A DNA stretch of 64,000 nucleotides from an uncultured Myxococcales bacterium. Its GTDB lineage: Bacteria > Myxococcota_A > Bradymonadia > UBA4248. Positions 28,371 to 38,612 of this stretch are shown here, piece after piece. Position 1 is the stretch's first letter. The number at the start of each line of letters is the position of its first letter. Both the position numbers and the translations under genes were made by a program. The notes under the pieces are model-generated. The model worked only from the letters and a program-made list of their open reading frames with translations, had not been told where the DNA came from and did not search any database. Where the stretch lies: contig CAYVQF010000008.1 in assembly GCA_964454015.1 (NCBI GenBank), positions 99,258 through 163,257 of the forward strand, given 5' to 3'.

Positions 28371-28517
28371 GCCCTGGCGCTGACCCTTGCGGGAGGTGAG
28401 CACGGGTTGCCCTCTCTGACGCGCGCTCACAATAGCGGTGCCGTTGCAATGGGTGTAAGTTAATCGACCCTGACGCGATGTCATCAGTGGTTGGTTGTGG
28501 AACGAATGGAGGAAGCG

Positions 28518-30917
28518 ATGCGATCCAAACTCAGCGTGATTGGGTTGATGGTCTTTGTGGCGGGGTGCGCCGGGCCGGCCTCGAGTGTCGAGGACTCATC
28601 CGTAACGTTAGGCGACAAAGGGGGCAATCAGGATCCCGTTCCCGTTGAACAGGAGCACAGGGTGGCTGCCCACGACCGGGACCTAGGTCGTCGAGACGGT
28701 GATGGAAAAGCCATCGTTTTCATCGAGGACGCCGGCGTCTTCGAGGAAAACAGGGAGAGAGTGGCAGGAGAGAGCAGGGACGAGACATTCCGCGCCAAGT
28801 CGCCGTCGCGTGCCGTGGGGGCCAGCGATAAGGTGGGCACCAAGCGTGGCGAGGGTGTGGCAACGGGGCGCGTGGACGCCGACAGTCGCCGCACCAGCCG
28901 TGGGGGGACTGGCGCTGCAGTGTCACCGCCAAGTCCGACGTCGACGAAAGATGACGCGGAAGCGGTGGCCGTGCCCGAGGATGGCTTGGGGGTCGCTGCG
29001 GCTGGGCTTCGCTACGAGTCGTGGCCTGAGCTGCAAGGGGAGTGGGAAAATTTGGGCCCGGTCTACACTGAACCCGGCCACCTGCCCCACCTAGAGGTCG
29101 CTTTCCTGAGCGAGAGCGATCGCCAGCGCCATCAAGAATTGCTCGAGGGCGGGCGCCTCAGGGTTCCCCTGGAGCATACCCACGTCGACGTCAAGATCTC
29201 TGGTCCCGTGGCGCGCGTCGAGGTGCAGCAGCGCTACAAAAACCCATTCGCCAATGTGATTGAGGCGGTCTACGTCTTTCCGTTGCCAGAAAACGCCGCC
29301 GTGGATGGCATGCGCATGCACATTGGCGATCGTGTCATTCGCGGGGTCATCAAAGAGAGGGCCGTGGCGCAAGCCATGTACCAAGAGGCCAAGGCGGCTG
29401 GCAAAGTGGCGGCCCTTCTCGAGCAAGAGCGGCCCAACATCTTCACCCAGTCGGTGGCCAATATCGCCCCGCAGACAGAAATCCGCATCGATGTGCAGTA
29501 CGTGCAGGATCTCAGTTATGACAATGGCGACTACGAGTTCGTCTTTCCCATGGTCGTCGGGCCGCGCTACGTGCCCTCTTCTGGACCCAGCCGCACCCGG
29601 CCGCCGGTCCTCGGCCAGGGCACCCGCAGTGGTCATGACATCTCACTCTCGCTCGTCGCCGACGCTGGTGTGCCCATTCTGTCGCACCAAGCGCTGACCC
29701 ACGATATCGAAAGCCAAGTCGATGGGAGTGGCAAAGTCTCCCTGCGCTTGGCAGAGCATGAGACGCTGCCCAACCGCGACTTCGTGTGGCGCTATCGTGT
29801 CGCTGCGCCTGAGACTCAGGCAGCCGTGCTCAGCGAGATGAAAGGCAAGGAGGGCTTCTTCACGCTCATCATCCAGCCGCCAGACCGCGATGTGAACGCT
29901 TTGGTGGGGACCAGGGAGATGGTCTTCGTCATCGATGTCTCCGGGTCCATGCGTGGTGTGCCCTTGCAGCTCTGCCAGGAAGCGCTGGCCGACGCCCTGC
30001 GCCGCCTCCGTCCCGTGGATACCTTCAACATCGTGACCTTTGCCTCGGGGTCGACCCGACTCTTTGATGAGGCGATGCCGGCCAACCAGCATTACTTGGC
30101 TCAGGCCATGGACTTCGTCGAGAACATGCGCGGTGGCGGGGGTACCAATCTCATGGCTGCCGTCATGGAGGCGGTCAACGCTCCTATCGACGCCAACGTC
30201 TCGCGGGTCATCGTCTTCATGACCGATGGTTTCATCGGCAACGAAGCGGAGGTGCTCCAGAGCCTCGCCGATGGTGTGGCCGCCATCGAGAAGCAGCACG
30301 CCCGGGCGCGGGTCTTTGCCTTTGGTGTGGGTTCCAGCGTCAACCGCTACCTCATCGATGAGCTGGCAAAAATCGGCCAGGGGACCAACTTCTACGCCAA
30401 CAACAGGGAAGACCCGAGCAAAGCCGTCGACGCCTTCTTCCAGATCGTGGACTACCCCATTTGGTCTCAAGTCGAACTCGATTTTGGTGCCCTCGAGGTG
30501 GAGCGCGTCTATCCAGCGCGCTTGCCAGACCTCATGGTGACGCGGCCCATCGTGGTCCACGGCCGCTTCAAGCGCGCCGGCAGCGGGCAAGTGACGCTGC
30601 GCGCCCGCGCCCAAGGCCAGACGGTGGAGCTTCCTGTGCAGGTCAGCTTGGCCAAAGGGCAAGAGCACGGCGGAGTCCTGGGAACCTTGTGGGCGCGTTC
30701 GGCGGTGGAGTCACTGGAGCGCGACATGTTCTACGTCTCGAGTTATGAGCAAGACAAGCTTCGCAACGAGATCACTCGCCTGGGCATGGATCACGGCATC
30801 GTGACGCACTACACCAGCTTCGTCGCTGTGGATCACAGCACCATCATCGAGGGCGGTGGTGACACCACCCAGGTGGTTCAGCCAATCCACCAGCCCGAAG
30901 GCGTGGGCAGAGAATAG
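28518..30917 (+). CDS. VIT + von Willebrand factor A domain lipoprotein
   Basis: Lipoprotein signal MRSKLSVIGLMVFVAGC. VIT domain (KISGPVARVEVQQRYKNP...FPMVVGPRY). VWA MIDAS motif in MVFVIDVSGSM. A Gly/Asp/Arg-rich low-complexity N-region. Confidence 0.8.
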   Translation: MRSKLSVIGLMVFVAGCAGPASSVEDSSVTLGDKGGNQDPVPVEQEHRVAAHDRDLGRRDGDGKAIVFIEDAGVFEENRERVAGESRDETFRAKSPSRAVGASDKVGTKRGEGVATGRVDADSRRTSRGGTGAAVSPPSPTSTKDDAEAVAVPEDGLGVAAAGLRYESWPELQGEWENLGPVYTEPGHLPHLEVAFLSESDRQRHQELLEGGRLRVPLEHTHVDVKISGPVARVEVQQRYKNPFANVIEAVYVFPLPENAAVDGMRMHIGDRVIRGVIKERAVAQAMYQEAKAAGKVAALLEQERPNIFTQSVANIAPQTEIRIDVQYVQDLSYDNGDYEFVFPMVVGPRYVPSSGPSRTRPPVLGQGTRSGHDISLSLVADAGVPILSHQALTHDIESQVDGSGKVSLRLAEHETLPNRDFVWRYRVAAPETQAAVLSEMKGKEGFFTLIIQPPDRDVNALVGTREMVFVIDVSGSMRGVPLQLCQEALADALRRLRPVDTFNIVTFASGSTRLFDEAMPANQHYLAQAMDFVENMRGGGGTNLMAAVMEAVNAPIDANVSRVIVFMTDGFIGNEAEVLQSLADGVAAIEKQHARARVFAFGVGSSVNRYLIDELAKIGQGTNFYANNREDPSKAVDAFFQIVDYPIWSQVELDFGALEVERVYPARLPDLMVTRPIVVHGRFKRAGSGQVTLRARAQGQTVELPVQVSLAKGQEHGGVLGTLWARSAVESLERDMFYVSSYEQDKLRNEITRLGMDHGIVTHYTSFVAVDHSTIIEGGGDTTQVVQPIHQPEGVGRE

Positions 30918-30965: not shown

Positions 30966-31454
30966 TCAGGGGAAGCTTGCGCTCAATTCCCATTGGCCAC
31001 CTCCAAGAGCGAGGCGCTCCCATGACGTGGCGCCGATCAAGGCGACCGCGTTCCCTGTCGCTAAGGTGACCGTGCGACCGCTCAACCAGGAGGCCAACCA
31101 CTCCAGGCCTGGATTGTGTCCGACCACGGCCGCCCCACGGCATTGCTGGGGTGTCTCCCGGAGAATGGAGACTATCTCTTCCGGCGAGGCACCATATAGG
31201 GGGTTGCGTACGCTCGCGTTGATGCCGAAAACGTGGGCCACGTTTTGCCAGGTGGCGAAGGCGCGCGGTGCAGGGCTGACATAGGCACAGTGGACAGACA
31301 AGGCGTGGGCCTGAAAGCGATCCGCCAGGCGCTGCGCCTCAGCGACCCCCGTCGGGCTCAGGACACGCTCGCGGTCACTCATCCCGCGCATGGTCGGCAG
31401 GGCGTGGCCGTGGCGAATGAGGAGCAGTTGAATGGACGGCGTCACGTCAGGCAA
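30966..31454 (-). CDS. SixA-like phosphohistidine phosphatase (histidine phosphatase/PGAM superfamily)
   Basis: The RHG motif LLLIRHGHA lies at residues 10-18. There is a SPxxRA segment and a late catalytic His (VVGHNPG). 162 aa like E. coli SixA. The start overlaps the preceding ORF by 8 nt. Confidence 0.75.
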   Translation of the reverse strand: MPDVTPSIQLLLIRHGHALPTMRGMSDRERVLSPTGVAEAQRLADRFQAHALSVHCAYVSPAPRAFATWQNVAHVFGINASVRNPLYGASPEEIVSILRETPQQCRGAAVVGHNPGLEWLASWLSGRTVTLATGNAVALIGATSWERLALGGGQWELSASFP

Positions 31455-32037
31455 CTCCCAAGTCGAGGTAGGCCATGAGCACGATGCGGTAACGCGGATC
31501 GTGATTGAGGGAGAGGTCGTCGAGCGGCAGCACCAGTAGCGGAGCGGATTGCGCCAGGACGGTCGAGGTATCGATGAGGGCGCGCAAGCGCGCCAAGAGT
31601 CGGGCCAGCTCGCCTCGCACCTCTGCGCAGCCTCTGCCGTTGAGCCGGGTCACTTGGCGTTGGAGCTGGCGCAGGTGGTTGATGACGGCGCGGAGAAAGT
31701 GGCGGACGAAGCGGTTGGGGGGCGTGTCATAGGAGATCTGGTTCTGCTCGTCATAGACCTTGAGAAAGCGCCACTTTTCGCCCCGGGCGACAAAGTCGCG
31801 GCGCCGATGGGTGATGGCGATGCCATCGGGTTCGAGGGTGGAGTTGGCCAATAACTCGGAAGAGATGGCCGTGGCCTCGCCTGGAGCGACGAGCAAGGTG
31901 TGCGGCATCAAGACCTTGTGTGGCGCGTCTTGGATGGCTTCGAGGGCGCGCCAGAGCCGGCCGCCGTCAGCGTTGAAGACCGCATGGATGCGGGCAACTT
32001 CGTCTCTTATCGCTGTGAGAGAGTGGGGACTCGGCAT
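31447..32037 (-). CDS. Hypothetical protein resembling the N-terminal (McrB-interacting) half of McrC; no nuclease domain
   Basis: 196 aa. The motif SYDTPPNRFVRHFLRAVINHL resembles, from my recollection of E. coli McrC, a McrC N-domain segment DTLANRIIKSTLAIL. No PD-(D/E)xK motif is seen. It is translationally coupled to both neighbours. Confidence 0.55.
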   Translation of the reverse strand: MPSPHSLTAIRDEVARIHAVFNADGGRLWRALEAIQDAPHKVLMPHTLLVAPGEATAISSELLANSTLEPDGIAITHRRRDFVARGEKWRFLKVYDEQNQISYDTPPNRFVRHFLRAVINHLRQLQRQVTRLNGRGCAEVRGELARLLARLRALIDTSTVLAQSAPLLVLPLDDLSLNHDPRYRIVLMAYLDLGVA

Positions 32038-32044
32038 GGTTGGG

Positions 32045-33466
32045 TCAGAAGAAAGAGGCGAGTCCGCTGTCGAGGAGCTGGCGGTTCATGCGATAGACTT
32101 TGTCAGCGCTGAGGGGGTAGGTGGGGTGAGTACGCTGAGTGTGGGCGAGCAATTGGGCGAAGGGTTGGCCGGCGGCGATCAGGTCCAGGAGCTCCGTGGC
32201 GAGTTGATGGAGCTGGCTCAAGTCCTGAGGACCGACCAGGGCGTAGGCCAGGAGGGGGGGTAAAACAGTGCCGAGCTTGTCCTCCCCTCCCCGCAGCTTG
32301 GGAAGCACCTTGGCCGAGATGAGGAAGTCACCGTGGACGTCCCAGCCGCCAGCGCTGTTGCTCAAGTAGCGCAAGATTTCGTTGACCACACGGTAGCCGA
32401 AGTGAAGGTTGGCCGAGCGCAGGATGGCAGCCATACAGAGCAGATCCTGGCGTACCGCGTCGTAGCCTGCCCAGGTGCTGCAGACGGCGTCATAATCGAT
32501 GTCGTTGAACTCCAGGACGAAGGCGCGGTCCAGGACCTTGGGAGCGAAACTGAAGGTGGTCTCGTCGACATTGACCGTGCCAATGATCGAGAGGTTGGGC
32601 GTGAAGGTCAGCCGTGGCGGGACGATGCGCGCCCAATCTGCGCCATGGCAGACCTTATCGATAGTGATCTTGTGGCGCGGCAAGACCATGCCCGATGATC
32701 CCAGGCCCAGGTAGTGATAGGCCAGGGGCCAGTCGCTGTCCATTCTGCCGATGAAGAGCTGCTCGTGGCTCGAGGTCTCCGAACCCATATCGATCTGAGG
32801 CGCGCTTTGGGTCCACAAGGGGCGCGTAAAGGGGTGCACGGGCGCCAACTCACCCAATCTGAACTGCTGATCGATGATCTCGCAGGGGCACTCCATGAGA
32901 CTGAGGAGGTCGGACAGGTAATACTCGACCCGGGCGAGGTTGAGCTCATCGAGGATGATGAAGTGGCGGGGCGCGGCGTGGCCGAAAGCGATGAACTCGA
33001 GGTAGGCGTGGATAGCGACCCGCAGGGCGTCCGTCGGGTAATAGAGGCCCGTGAGGGGGTTGTAATAGCCCCAAACCTTGCGGGAGTCAGACCACTCCGG
33101 GCGGACGGGGAGAAAGGCGACCCGGTCACGTACCACCTGGGCGATCCCCGCTTCCTTGATGGCTGCGGCGCTCATGTCATCGCCCAGGGCACGGACGTCG
33201 ACATAGGTGTTGCCGTCCTCGCCTTCGAGGTCAGGGACGATGCCGTTTTGCACCAAGGTGCTGCGATAGGTAGGGCCCGTAGCGACGCCACCAAAGGGTC
33301 GGCCTTGATAGCGCCCTTCTTCCAAGACTCCGGCGGCGAGGCCAGCGGCCAGACGCCGAGCGAGCTGGGTTTTCCCGGAGCCGCTGATGCCCGCTAGGAG
33401 AACGAAAGGCTTGGTCGCAAGCGCTGTGATGAGGCTGTTAATGACACCACGGCGTTCCCGGATCAT
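32045..33466 (-). CDS. McrB-family AAA+ GTPase-like protein (no N-terminal DNA-binding domain)
   Basis: Walker A LLAGISGSGKTQLARRL. The McrB-type Walker B/signature is HFIILDELNLARVEYYLSDLLSLME (compare IDEINR...FGEL..LLE). The McrB motif NLSIIGTVNVDETTFSFAPKVLDRAF (compare IGTMNTADRS...ALRRRF) is present. Confidence 0.8.
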   Translation of the reverse strand: MIRERRGVINSLITALATKPFVLLAGISGSGKTQLARRLAAGLAAGVLEEGRYQGRPFGGVATGPTYRSTLVQNGIVPDLEGEDGNTYVDVRALGDDMSAAAIKEAGIAQVVRDRVAFLPVRPEWSDSRKVWGYYNPLTGLYYPTDALRVAIHAYLEFIAFGHAAPRHFIILDELNLARVEYYLSDLLSLMECPCEIIDQQFRLGELAPVHPFTRPLWTQSAPQIDMGSETSSHEQLFIGRMDSDWPLAYHYLGLGSSGMVLPRHKITIDKVCHGADWARIVPPRLTFTPNLSIIGTVNVDETTFSFAPKVLDRAFVLEFNDIDYDAVCSTWAGYDAVRQDLLCMAAILRSANLHFGYRVVNEILRYLSNSAGGWDVHGDFLISAKVLPKLRGGEDKLGTVLPPLLAYALVGPQDLSQLHQLATELLDLIAAGQPFAQLLAHTQRTHPTYPLSADKVYRMNRQLLDSGLASFF

Positions 33467-34589: not shown

Positions 34590-35495
34590 ATGCCGGGACC
34601 TAACAACCCTCGCCCAGGAGGGAGCAACAGGTCGCTCGAACGGGTCGTCATCGTCAGTGGTATGGGCGGCAGCGGCAAGACCACGGCCTTGCATGCCCTC
34701 GAGGACATCGGTTTCTACTGTATCGACAATTTGCCCCTCGTGCTCTTCAAGGCGCTCCTTGACCGCCTCGAGCCGCACCCGGAGATCAGCCGGGTCGCTC
34801 TGGTGGTCGATATCCGGGACCGGCTCTTTCTCGAGGAAGCACCGCAAGCGCTGCTGGAGATCATCGCTGCCGGTATTCCGACGGAGCTGCTCTTCTTGGA
34901 TGCCGAAGACGACGTGCTGTTGCGGCGCTACAAAGAGACCCGACGGCGTCACCCGCTGGAGAGCCATCGCCCCCTGCGCAACGCCATCGAGGAAGAGCGG
35001 CGCATGCTCGAAGCGCTCCTCCATTTGGCCAACCTGGTCATCGACACTTCCTCGATGAGTCCACACGCGCTGCGGCGTTGTTTGGATGATCGCTTCGAGG
35101 GAGGTGGACTCGCCCTGCGAGTCAGCGTCATGAGCTTTGGTTTCAAGTATGGCGTTCCGGCCGAGGCCGATCTGGTCTTTGACGTTCGATTCTTGGCCAA
35201 CCCCTTCTTCGTGCCCCACCTGCGCACGCTCTGCGGCCTCGATCCACCGCTGCGGGACTACGTCTTTGCTGATCCCAAGGCCCAGATCTTCGTCGACAAG
35301 GCGCAAGATTTCGTGGGCTTTCTGCTGCCGAATTTCGCGGCAGAGGGCAAGCGCTACGTGACCATCGCCATCGGCTGCACGGGGGGCCAGCACCGAAGCG
35401 TCGCGATCGCCGAAGCTTGTGCCGATGTTTTGGAGCGCGGCGCCTACACGGTGCGGCGGGTTCACCGCGACATGCGGCCGAGCAACCAGCTCTAA
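34590..35495 (+). CDS. rapZ: RNase adapter protein RapZ (YhbJ)
   Basis: N-terminal P-loop VIVSGMGGSGKTTAL and the C-terminal conserved IAIGCTGGQHRSV motif. 301 aa. Confidence 0.85.
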   Translation: MPGPNNPRPGGSNRSLERVVIVSGMGGSGKTTALHALEDIGFYCIDNLPLVLFKALLDRLEPHPEISRVALVVDIRDRLFLEEAPQALLEIIAAGIPTELLFLDAEDDVLLRRYKETRRRHPLESHRPLRNAIEEERRMLEALLHLANLVIDTSSMSPHALRRCLDDRFEGGGLALRVSVMSFGFKYGVPAEADLVFDVRFLANPFFVPHLRTLCGLDPPLRDYVFADPKAQIFVDKAQDFVGFLLPNFAAEGKRYVTIAIGCTGGQHRSVAIAEACADVLERGAYTVRRVHRDMRPSNQL

Positions 35496-36685
35496 GCACA
35501 GAGATCCGTGACGCGCGTCATGAAGCGGCGCGTGTTGTCCGCCAGATCTGGGCCATGCCGATGGAGATCACCGCCGATGAGCAGCACCGTGTCGTTGCCG
35601 TAAAAAGCGAGCAGCTCTGGCACCTTGGCCAGGGTCATCCCCCCGGCAGGTGCTGGCCATGTACGGTGGCCATGCGAGGGCCTGCGACAGGCGGCGCTGA
35701 TGGCTGCACATTCGCCAGGGCTAAAGGAGAAGCGCCCGCCGAAGCTCGGGAAGATGCTGACATCGGCACCGGCGAGGCGCGGCAAGAGTCCGTAAACCAA
35801 GGCATGGGAGAGGCCATGGTGGGGAGCGGCAGAGAAAGCGCCGAGAAAGGCCGGGTGGCAGAGGAGGGGGAGCTCGAGCCCTGGCGCGTCGCGCAGCATG
35901 CGGAGGGCATCGAAACCGCTCAGCCCCGGTGCGACCATGAGCGCGCCAGCGCCGGCAGTGGCGGCTAGGTGCGCTCGTTCCAGGAGTGTCTCCAGGGGGC
36001 CGCTGACATTGGGGCAGTAGATGGTGTGGCTCCCATGCTGGGCGTTGGCCGCAGCGATCGCTTCTGCGCATCGCGCGACGCGCTCGGCAAAGGGCGAAAA
36101 GCGCTGGTCGGCGAGACCATGGTCGTCTTTGACCATATCGAGGCCGCCCGCGGCGAGGGCGGAGGCCATGGTGGCCAGCTCACGTGGCGCGAGGCCCATG
36201 GGCTTGATGGCGGAGCAGAAGAGGGGGCGCTGGGCGACACCTACTTTGTTGCGCAAACCGCCGACGCCGAAACGCGGGCCTCCAAAGGCTTCTTGGAGGG
36301 ATCGGGGGAGGCCGAGGTCGAGGAGGCGGATGCCGGGTTTGAGGCTGATGTTGCCGTAGACGACGTTCAGAAACTGGGTCAACTCGAAACCCGTGACGCT
36401 CGGGTTGAAGGCGATGCGCACGCGATGCGTGCCCTCGCCAGTGTCGTCTATGCTGAGAATGCGGCCCAGGATGTGTTCACGTATGGCTGTGGAGGTGATG
36501 AGATCTTCGGGGAACTCCACGGTCTGCTCGACGCAGATGTCCCTGGCGCGGGCGTGGGCCTGCTCCGGGCTGGTGGTGGCGATGAGATAGGTGGCCACCA
36601 GGGCCTGCTCTTCACTGGCAGGGAAGGCCGCGAGGAGCTGCTCGGCGCTGTTTGCACCGGGCTGAGGTGAGGGTTGCGTGGCCAT
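35492..36685 (-). CDS. RuBisCO-like protein (form IV RuBisCO large-subunit homologue)
   Basis: RuBisCO large-chain core motifs are present: GGLDMVKDDHG (compare GGLDFTKDDE, retaining the carbamylation Lys) and PLFCSAIKPMGL (compare PLLGCTIKPKLGL). Active-site substitutions (E204->H, K177->M) and a ~400-aa length are typical of RLPs. Start MATQPS. The last gene of the transketolase operon. Confidence 0.8.
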   Translation of the reverse strand: MATQPSPQPGANSAEQLLAAFPASEEQALVATYLIATTSPEQAHARARDICVEQTVEFPEDLITSTAIREHILGRILSIDDTGEGTHRVRIAFNPSVTGFELTQFLNVVYGNISLKPGIRLLDLGLPRSLQEAFGGPRFGVGGLRNKVGVAQRPLFCSAIKPMGLAPRELATMASALAAGGLDMVKDDHGLADQRFSPFAERVARCAEAIAAANAQHGSHTIYCPNVSGPLETLLERAHLAATAGAGALMVAPGLSGFDALRMLRDAPGLELPLLCHPAFLGAFSAAPHHGLSHALVYGLLPRLAGADVSIFPSFGGRFSFSPGECAAISAACRRPSHGHRTWPAPAGGMTLAKVPELLAFYGNDTVLLIGGDLHRHGPDLADNTRRFMTRVTDLCA

Positions 36686-37692
36686 CAGAGCGCCTCTGGT
36701 TTGGCGTCGAAACTCGCGGCGGGAACCGCGTCCGTGTCGCAGCAAGGGTTCGCGTCGGAAAAGTCGACGCCCAGGCGCGCCCCTGCCGCCGCAAGGATAC
36801 CTGCCGTGTCGATGCCCAGCTTGGCCATGAGGTAAGGGGTGCTGGCGCCGTGGGCGTAGGTATCGCGCAGACCGAGACGCACCAGGGGGCGCGCTAGGGC
36901 GGCCTCGGCCATGACTTCAGCCAACGCCGAGCCCAAGCCACCAATGATGCTGTGGTTTTCGATAGAGAGCACTGGGCCGCGGTGCGGGCGGAGGGCTGCG
37001 CAGAGGATGTCCGCCGGGAAAGGTTTGAGGGTGGAGACGTGCAGGTGTTGCACCGTGAGGCCTGCCGCTCGCATGACCTTGGCGGCGGCCATCGCTTCTT
37101 GGGTGCAGATGCCACTGCTCACCAGCGTGATGTCGTCACCGTCGCCGAGGTCGCGGACGCCGTTCGCCTGCAGGGGGTGATGGGGGGGAAAGAGGCGAGG
37201 CACTTCGCCGCGGAGCATGCGTAGGTAGACGGGACCATCGATGGCGTCAGCCACATCCAAGGCCGACTCGACCTCGGTGGCGTCGCCGACTTCGATGATA
37301 TGCATGTTGGGGATGGCCCGCATCAGGGCAATGTCATCGATGGCCTGGTGGGTGACGCCGCCAGGGGTGGTGATCCCCGGGAGGAAGCCAAAGAGTCGCA
37401 CCCGCAGGTTGGGGTAGGCGATGGCCATGGCAACTTGATCGAAGGCGCGGCGGGTGATGAAGACGGCAAAGGTGTGTACGCATGGGGTGTAGCCCTCCCG
37501 CGCCAAGCCGGCGGCGACACCGATCATGTTTTGCTCCGCCATCCCCATTGAAAAGAAGCGGTCTGGGTAGGCGTCGCGAAAGAGATCGGCTTCACAGGAA
37601 GCGGTGAGGTCCGCCGAGAGGACGACGACATCGGGGCGATCCTTGGCCCAGGCGACGAGGTTGTGGGCGTGAGGGCGTGGTACCATGATCAT
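36685..37692 (-). CDS. Transketolase, C-terminal (pyrimidine-binding) subunit of a split transketolase
   Basis: Transketolase Pyr/C-terminal domain with FSMGMAEQNMIGVAAGLA and HTFAVFITRRAFDQV. Start MIMVPR. The start overlaps the upstream gene's stop (ATGA). Confidence 0.8.
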   Translation of the reverse strand: MIMVPRPHAHNLVAWAKDRPDVVVLSADLTASCEADLFRDAYPDRFFSMGMAEQNMIGVAAGLAREGYTPCVHTFAVFITRRAFDQVAMAIAYPNLRVRLFGFLPGITTPGGVTHQAIDDIALMRAIPNMHIIEVGDATEVESALDVADAIDGPVYLRMLRGEVPRLFPPHHPLQANGVRDLGDGDDITLVSSGICTQEAMAAAKVMRAAGLTVQHLHVSTLKPFPADILCAALRPHRGPVLSIENHSIIGGLGSALAEVMAEAALARPLVRLGLRDTYAHGASTPYLMAKLGIDTAGILAAAGARLGVDFSDANPCCDTDAVPAASFDAKPEAL

Positions 37693-38612
37693 GACGGCAG
37701 CTCCTCGTTCAACTGGGCCAGGCGTTCGATGTAAGGTTGGCGTTCGGCGTCGTTTTTGAAGCGCACGTAGTGGAGCTTGGGAGCGCGTTGCCGTAGGGCG
37801 TCGATGCCGCGGCAGGGATCGGTGCGCAACAGCAGCGCGACGGGGCGTCCTTGGGAAGGTTGGGCCGCTGCGGCGATCAAAGCCGCCGGATCGTGGCCGT
37901 CGAGCTCGTGGGCCAGGCCGCCAAAGGCCGTGATGCGCGCGGCGAGAGGCTCGATGTTCATGACCTGCTGCATCGCACCATCGCACTGCTGCCCGTTGCA
38001 GTCGACCACCATGGTCAGGTTGTCAATCTCGTGGAAGGCCATGGCGGCGATGGCTTCCCAGGTCTGACCCTCTTGGAACTCGCCGTCGGACATGAAGACC
38101 CACACCCGACCGCTGGCGCGGCGTATTTTGCGGGCGAGGGCGATCCCTGCGGCTTGGCTCAAGGCTTGGGCCAATGAGCCTGCGGTGACTTCGTGGCCAG
38201 GGGAGTGCTCCGCGCCGATGAGCTCGACCGTGCTGCCGTCGGTGTTGAAGAGGTCGAGGGCCTCAGGGCCCATGCGCCCGCATTCGATGAGGGTAGCGTA
38301 GAGGACGAGGGCATAGTGCACGGGTGAGAAGATGAAGCGATCCAAGTGGTCCTCACGCGGTCCGTTGTAGAGGGCGCCACTGAAGTAAGGTCGCCCAGGG
38401 CCGGGGACGTGGGCAAAGGGAAGAGGGAGGCTCGGCGCGAGGGATGGGCCGAGGCGCATCAGGCCGGAGTAGAGGGTCGCGAGGGCCTCACTGGTGGAGC
38501 AGGCTTGGCTGAGATAGCCGCCGTTATTGCTGAGGGTGTGGGCCAGAACCCGGCGACGGATGCGCTGGGCGGTGTTGGCGATGCGCGTGGGGGAGAGCTC
38601 AGGTGCAGACAT
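37689..38612 (-). CDS. Transketolase, N-terminal (thiamine-diphosphate-binding) subunit
   Basis: TPP-binding motif VFMSDGEFQEGQTWEAIAAMAFHEIDNLTMVVDCNGQQ (GDG...N). 307 aa, typical of the TktA-N small subunit. Confidence 0.8.
   Translation of the reverse strand: MSAPELSPTRIANTAQRIRRRVLAHTLSNNGGYLSQACSTSEALATLYSGLMRLGPSLAPSLPLPFAHVPGPGRPYFSGALYNGPREDHLDRFIFSPVHYALVLYATLIECGRMGPEALDLFNTDGSTVELIGAEHSPGHEVTAGSLAQALSQAAGIALARKIRRASGRVWVFMSDGEFQEGQTWEAIAAMAFHEIDNLTMVVDCNGQQCDGAMQQVMNIEPLAARITAFGGLAHELDGHDPAALIAAAAQPSQGRPVALLLRTDPCRGIDALRQRAPKLHYVRFKNDAERQPYIERLAQLNEELPS

Follow-up and report, generated by a model that had tools for sequence, protein, structure and literature searches.

The textbook example of a nucleotide-dependent Type IV restriction enzyme is McrBC, and to our knowledge a nuclease of some kind is kept in cis in all McrBC variants described. 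Next to the canonical systems, a major branch of McrB GTPases was described in which the NxxD signature is shortened to NxD, with Glu or Asp usually following, and a nuclease was reported to be 'always' adjacent when McrC lacks its own (PMC11090510). This branch includes methyltransferase-associated systems and the CoCoNuT and CoCoPALM groups, and its members encode an AAA+ core with N-x-D then Glu together with an operonic DUF2357 protein, DUF2357 being the N-terminal domain of McrC (PMC11090510). Here, a 64-kb stretch of DNA from an uncultured Myxococcales bacterium (contig CAYVQF010000008.1; the whole stretch is called the window) was analysed, which encodes on its minus strand an McrB-like ATPase of the NxD type and a stand-alone McrC finger domain, followed by a SixA-like histidine phosphatase. 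The conserved unit is the two-gene pair without reader or nuclease, which appears to be inherited vertically. With a probability of roughly 0.6 we regard it as a two-gene, vertically inherited McrBC derivative, i.e., a nucleoside triphosphatase (NTPase) switch that would be unable to restrict DNA and would have been exapted to a cellular role.

Among McrBC homologues, the pair falls into the NxD branch and shares with its members the AAA+ core, the N-x-D signature followed by Glu and the operonic DUF2357 protein (PMC11090510). However, it is unlike any system of that census: the ATPase carries no coiled-coil, Hsp70, FtsB or reader fusion, the partner is limited to the finger domain, the pair in the window is adjoined by neither a HEPN, a PD-(D/E)xK nor any other nuclease, a methyltransferase or TerY-P module is lacking, and the context is chromosomal and made of housekeeping genes. 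The pair does not qualify as a CoCoNuT either, as neither protein has long coiled-coil fusions and there are no nuclease neighbours. In the literature searched, no description of a reader-less and nuclease-less ATPase/finger pair was found.

The ATPase and its finger partner

The three open reading frames (ORFs) are consecutive on the minus strand, on which all features of the pair and of the phosphatase lie. An initial annotation had placed them correctly and had correctly described gaps or overlaps of at most 8 nt: from the stop codon of the ATPase gene (473 amino acids, aa; 32045..33466) to the ATG of the 196-aa gene (31447..32037) there are 7 nt, and the phosphatase gene (30966..31445) follows after a 1-nt gap or, if it starts at a TTG codon, with an 8-nt overlap.

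The ATPase has more than 5000 homologues, many of them ~473 aa long and derived from Myxococcota metagenome-assembled genomes (MAGs); no Pfam or NCBIfam model matches it at or above cutoff. In a family alignment of 40 sequences (A1), the Walker A motif GISGSGKTQ (GISGSGKT, residues 26–33; 33368..33391) and the LDExN of the Walker B motif (IILDELNL with D173 and E174; 32936..32959) are invariant, as are N299, D301, E302, T303 and T304 of the signature GTVNVDETT (TVNVDETT; 32555..32578). The AlphaFold2 (AF2) model, with a mean predicted local distance difference test (pLDDT) value of 87.5, comprises an AAA+ α/β core plus lid, and its strand 292–299 places N299 at the end of strand β4, the sensor-1 position. 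The Walker B motif proposed in the initial annotation stands, while the MNxxDRS-like motif proposed with it has to be replaced by N-x-D-E as the actual sensor-1 signature; the canonical NxxD is not present, and NxD[E/D] is found in 160 of 172 relatives. Moreover, PKVLDR is invariant in A1, and the segment PKVLDRAF (32519..32542) aligns with the arginine-finger region of E. coli McrB (ALRRR). A β-hairpin of the helix-2 insert, WGYYNPLTGLYYP (residues 132–144; 33035..33073), is near-invariant in A1, is formed by strands 133–136 and 141–144 in the AF2 model and represents a predicted pore loop. The C-terminal tail, which reads SGLASFF-COOH in the window (32048–32068), is conserved in the ATPase family; it is reminiscent of docking tails on other AAA+ rings.

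Comparison of the A1 profile with all PDB sequences resulted in McrB from E. coli and T. gammatolerans as the top matches (6hz4/6ut6/6ut3; E=5e-4 to 6e-3), and no MoxR, RavA or NorQ chain was found at E≤1. In E. coli McrB and in the ATPase family, the blocks of Walker A, Walker B and consensus loop follow one another collinearly, and hhalign against the single E. coli McrB sequence gave a short match covering the Walker A region only (E=2.9e-5). These matches, the invariant N-x-D-E and the DUF2357 partners agree with the original assignment and indicate, at the level of sequence, that the ATPase is McrB-type and of the NxD branch.

The 196-aa protein scores above the Pfam cutoff for DUF2357 (E=1.5e-12), with a match that spans profile positions 80–220 of 251. 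An exhaustive HMMER search over 1.84 billion representative proteins returned only 34 relatives, ~22 of them short (139–216 aa) and the remainder long and McrC-like; word-indexed searches, whether started from the protein or from the alignment of its family, recovered essentially the query alone, and neither the protein nor the family profile matched anything significant among the PDB sequences. The short-family profile aligns inside the long partners, e.g., with residues 293–487 of 712. For the 196-aa protein, AF2 gave a model of very high confidence (mean pLDDT 94.9), which shows, in this order, a long helix, β-strands, a short helix (residues 60–66), β-strands and a helical bundle, and by structure comparison this fold is closest to McrC finger domains. 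The finger of T. gammatolerans McrC comprises ~190 residues with a helical bundle, a β-sheet stalk and a loop-helix-loop tip plugging the McrB pore (PMC7680126), and the model agrees with this description in size and in the order of its elements, with bundle, stalk and tip all being present. Furthermore, the motif DTPPNRF (31708..31728) aligns with EDTLANR of E. coli McrC, and N108 within it is invariant in the family. The protein is thus an McrC N-terminal or finger domain alone, as had been proposed from its sequence motif, and the search for a nuclease described below found none.

Compared to canonical McrBC (E. coli EcoKMcrBC and T. gammatolerans; 6hz4, 6ut5, 6ut6), the pair has the same collinear motif blocks, the same gene order of B then C and a partner whose fold is nearest to the McrC finger and which shares with it the motif D-T-x-x-N-R. 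In contrast to the canonical enzymes, the ATPase has NxD instead of NxxD, no DNA-binding N-terminal domain and an AAA+ core with large conserved inserts (residues ~46–115 and ~195–290) and a C-terminal extension. The partner has neither the scaffold nor the endonuclease domain, and therefore DNA cleavage and probably also McrC-mediated dimerisation of hexamers would not be expected.

Conservation of the pair and search for reader and nuclease

Scans of species-representative genomes and metagenomes, together with contig look-ups, resulted in ~180 loci, which are labelled L followed by a number. Among these are ~25 distinct short-form loci, with ATPases 38–70% identical to that of the window and scoring above about 260 bits. 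Every short-form ATPase has 460–490 aa and is followed by a finger-only partner of 156–220 aa; a DUF2357 partner is present in every such locus having downstream sequence, and the ORFs of the pair are intact throughout. All short-form loci come from MAGs labelled Myxococcota or "Deltaproteobacteria". The more distant ATPases have 550–900 aa, as do their partners, and at 25–38% identity these relatives are classic long forms with DUF2357+PDDEXK_7 partners.

The Walker A motif begins at residue 26 of the ATPase and leaves no room for an N-terminal domain, in line with the initial annotation, which had noted the missing DNA reader. A target-recognition domain was not found at the N-terminus, whereas the ATPases of the long-form relatives have N-terminal extensions of 200–450 aa. 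For the nuclease, the partners of the nearest long-form relatives (ATPase 35–38% identical) are DUF2357+PDDEXK_7 proteins, and a hidden Markov model (HMM) was built from the PDDEXK_7 domains of 97 relatives and run on six-frame translations. It matches 115 long-form loci and gave zero matches at E≤10 in the whole window and in 39 short-form loci. This indicates that the nuclease was neither split off nor left to decay in place, but is absent. Moreover, no reader, nuclease, HEPN or other effector was found within 5–10 kb of any short-form locus. With reader and nuclease absent in cis, Type IV restriction by the complex would not be possible.

The neighbours of the pair are specific for each clade. 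In clade B (56–61% identity), a gene for BtpA follows the pair in all eight loci and is itself followed by genes for a DUF3108 protein and a histidine kinase. In clade D (38–42% identity), a SRAP gene is located divergently upstream and neither SixA nor BtpA is present. In clades A and C taken together, a SixA-like gene is found in five of eight loci, and within clade C a MopE-like gene is encountered repeatedly. Throughout, the neighbours of the short-form loci are housekeeping genes, and no integrases or transposases were found among them. This clade-specific synteny points to a gene pair with a stable place in the chromosome and not to a mobile defence island, and it thereby favours an exapted cellular role over a mobile defence role.

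As further observations on these neighbours, the BtpA of clade B is a TIM-barrel protein (PF03437, E ~1e-78) encoded at distances of −34 to +111 nt from the pair (L096:5553-6371, L016:9022-9837, L100:9016-9918, L014:2504-3376 and four further loci), and the association of a third gene with the pair is more consistent for BtpA than for SixA. The SRAP genes of clade D (PF02586, shown for L011) lie on the minus strand 77–87 nt upstream of the ATPase gene in three distinct loci (L011:5207-5905, L021:6205-6900, L022:6194-6913). In clades A and C, the gene for valyl-tRNA synthetase (ValRS) is located no more than a few kb from the pair, on one side or the other (L007:1-351, L175:8061-10787, L177:8778-11464), and its persistence suggests that old local synteny has been retained around the locus.

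The same picture was obtained for the window, for which the initial annotation had noted a housekeeping context with punA and rapZ and no obvious defence island. Neighbouring genes encode purine nucleoside phosphorylase (punA), RapZ, a RuBisCO-like protein, a split transketolase and proteins of the VIT-VWA, cNMP-binding and SEC-C-motif types, and they include neither an integrase or transposase nor a known defence gene. The G+C content of the region (0.61–0.63) equals that of the flanks, and 12 metagenome or MAG contigs carry identical copies of the locus. The punA gene is divergent from the ATPase gene with 167 nt between them, and promoter and terminator scans of the locus gave matches at chance level only.

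These data also bear on the possibility of a defence function, with the pair as a system of the NxD branch directed against phages or plasmids, in which effector and sensor are encoded elsewhere or in which consumption of nucleoside triphosphates is itself the toxic output. The family otherwise consists of restriction-type systems, and the ATPase matches the PADLOC candidate PDC-M26A (E=8.7e-38) across the middle of the 724-position profile. Neither the 196-aa protein nor the phosphatase matches a PADLOC model. We consider a defence function unlikely, since effectors are missing near all short-form loci, the rule that a nuclease-less McrC has another nuclease at its side does not hold here, the loci are syntenic within clades and lie among housekeeping genes, and the sequence conservation is high for a defence gene.

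The SixA-like phosphatase and further neighbours

SixA of E. coli acts on the HPt domain of ArcB, on NPr and on Ndk. The third gene of the window encodes a 159-aa protein starting from a GTG codon at 31445 and matching His_Phos_1 (PF00300) above cutoff (E=6e-10), with the catalytic set RHG, SPxxRA and GHNPG being present. It appears to be catalytically intact. This supports the phosphatase fold given in the initial annotation; the assignment to SixA proper is less secure, as the score against NCBIfam sixA (TIGR00249) is 54.5 bits and thus below the cutoff of 74.5. The protein resembles SixA equivalogs in its length of ~160 aa, the short His_Phos_1 fold, the RHG, the second Arg and the His of GHxP. 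It differs from them in forming, together with the phosphatases beside the pair in two clades, a subfamily of its own (27–38% pairwise identity, GHNPG...TGN).

The GTG start is the one used by public gene calls on identical contigs, and it is preceded at a distance of 9 nt by a Shine-Dalgarno-like GGGAG element inside the 196-aa gene, whose TGA stop codon ends 1 nt before the GTG. The alternative TTG at 31454 would extend the protein to 162 aa. In the window, the phosphatase is probably translationally coupled to the pair.

A family HMM located SixA homologues beside the pair in 5 of the 25 distinct short-form loci, and none elsewhere among the collected loci. They are co-oriented with the pair in the window and in L009 (3-nt gap) and convergent in the clade C loci L175/L019, L177 and L178. 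In L007 and L093, both close relatives, in L173 and in all loci of clades B and D, no SixA lies beside the pair; in a neighbor-joining tree, the window groups with L007 and L009 with L093, i.e., each with a locus that has no SixA. In L177 (7059-8030, minus strand), the SixA match is limited to HMM positions 47–163 within a 324-aa open frame, for which the gene caller gives a product of 129 aa without Pfam match. The copy may have been frameshifted or be in decay, and this suggests that SixA is being lost in some lineages. Overall, the association of SixA with the pair appears to be old and recurrent, yet facultative and independent of orientation. In part of the lineage SixA and the pair could be linked in function, or their adjacency could simply be inherited synteny, as ValRS behaves similarly. 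SixA is thus a lineage-specific accessory or a long-standing neighbour and not a defining subunit, and the gene-neighbourhood check suggested with the initial annotation, i.e., whether the three genes are conserved together, comes out in favour of the ATPase/finger pair and largely against the triad.

It follows how the interpretation put forward in the initial annotation has to be judged, i.e., an McrBC-like motor coupled to a phosphatase in the place of the McrC nuclease. In such a three-component system, the SixA-like protein would be the effector, and the finger-activated motor would control, or be controlled by, the dephosphorylation of a phosphohistidine protein or of a phosphorylated small molecule. 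The tight coupling in the window and in L009, where both flanks differ, speaks for it, as do the coherent subfamily that adjoins the pair also in clade C and the intact catalytic RHG, R and H residues. However, the reading that the phosphatase replaces the nuclease is weakly supported, because SixA flanks a fifth of the loci only and BtpA occupies its position throughout clade B. In clade C the convergent SixA is not co-transcribed with the pair, and inherited synteny, as seen for ValRS, can explain the adjacency. In addition, SixA is a widespread stand-alone housekeeping enzyme (PMC6282199). In the literature searched, McrBC and SixA are found together in strain-genotype mentions only. Taken together, we hold this explanation for improbable, and more so than a defence function.

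Two further neighbours in the window were noticed. A gene of 808 aa with VIT and VWA domains (28491-30917, plus strand) is convergent with the phosphatase gene, their ends being 49 nt apart. VWA proteins are frequent partners of MoxR-type AAA+ proteins; the neighbourhood looks coincidental here, because no VWA gene adjoins the pair at any other locus. The gene for the RuBisCO-like protein (PF00016, E=2.6e-24) lies directly 3' of the genes for the N- and C-terminal subunits of a split transketolase, and this cluster (35492-38612, minus strand) may belong to a sugar-phosphate salvage pathway.

Alternative explanations and a possible cellular role

Several points weigh against an exapted two-gene switch. 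No characterised NxD-branch McrB is reported in the census (PMC11090510), and the related loci are all derived from MAGs. The PADLOC match mentioned above could point towards defence with a trans-encoded effector. A Foldseek search with the ATPase model placed it among the MoxR/dynein/McrB group of AAA+ folds, and NorQ/MoxR (E=1e-4) and dynein were ranked ahead of McrB (rank 14). The TM-scores of these matches are low because of the two large conserved inserts, and judged from the model Foldseek does not appear to discriminate McrB from MoxR or dynein. In McrC, a conserved basic residue remodels the consensus loop of McrB, namely Arg263 in T. gammatolerans and Lys157 in E. coli. An equivalent of this activating residue could not be mapped in the 196-aa protein: the hhalign alignment with E. 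coli McrC pairs residues 100–154 with 98–140 only (E=0.06) and ends before Lys157, and a conserved Arg at position ~148 (in an 'RRL' column) is a candidate only. Finally, SixA adjacency recurs in two clades although the flanks have changed, which could mean a real functional link that is underweighted here.

Two other explanations are highly improbable. For a decaying and non-functional McrBC remnant beside a housekeeping sixA one might cite that the nearest long-form relatives exceed both proteins in length and that the finger protein spans only part of DUF2357 (positions 80–220), and the partial Pfam and PADLOC coverage had raised the idea of a truncation or pseudogene; this was ruled out by the family census and the conservation, as ~25 lineages, with identities as low as 38%, have kept the short architecture with intact ORFs, invariant columns number in the dozens, both folds are predicted with very high confidence and no remnants of a nuclease pseudogene were found. 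The view that the ATPase is no McrB relative but an AAA+ chaperone of the MoxR/NorQ type, with the neighbouring VIT-VWA protein as its partner, would fit the shared broad AAA+ clade (helix-2 insert, AAA_5-like), the NorQ hexamers among the top Foldseek matches and the VWA gene nearby, but this gene is convergent and absent from every other locus, so that it was rejected as a partner, the sequence profile matches McrB and no MoxR-type chain, and N-x-D-E together with a DUF2357 instead of a VWA partner are hallmarks of McrBC.

For the exapted two-gene switch, the following mechanism can be proposed. The McrB-like NxD ATPase would have lost its N-terminal target-reading domain, and its partner would have been reduced to the ~190-residue McrC finger with helical bundle, β-stalk and loop-helix-loop tip. 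[quoted passage not shown] GTP specificity, hexamerisation and finger-stimulated hydrolysis would be expected on the basis of this analogy. In McrC, the N- and C-terminal helices of the finger contact the nuclease. In the pair these helices would be exposed and, like the conserved inserts or the C-terminal tail of the ATPase, might serve as output surfaces. The pair would then most likely act as a nucleotide-driven switch or remodelling motor, whose output might be conformational or rotary work on another partner. A more specific version, in which a domesticated rotary switch with a finger acting like a GTPase-activating protein on the McrB hexamer fulfils a cellular role in a Myxococcota lineage and has SixA (clades A and C) and BtpA (clade B) as clients or outputs, is tentative and clearly less probable than the exapted switch as such, and ranks before a defence function.

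As a summary, the conservation of the pair despite the loss of reader and nuclease suggests that the engine of McrB hexamer and McrC finger is useful on its own. Consisting of two small soluble proteins, whose folds are predicted with confidence, the pair offers a minimal system in which the stimulation of an NxD-type McrB by the finger could be studied, and the recurrent but non-obligate SixA and BtpA neighbours provide concrete hypotheses. If the reading as a domesticated switch is true, the machinery of McrBC would for the first time be seen in a role outside defence, and a first functional handle on the NxD branch would be gained. The pair may thus be an example of a defence machine that was exapted to a cellular role.

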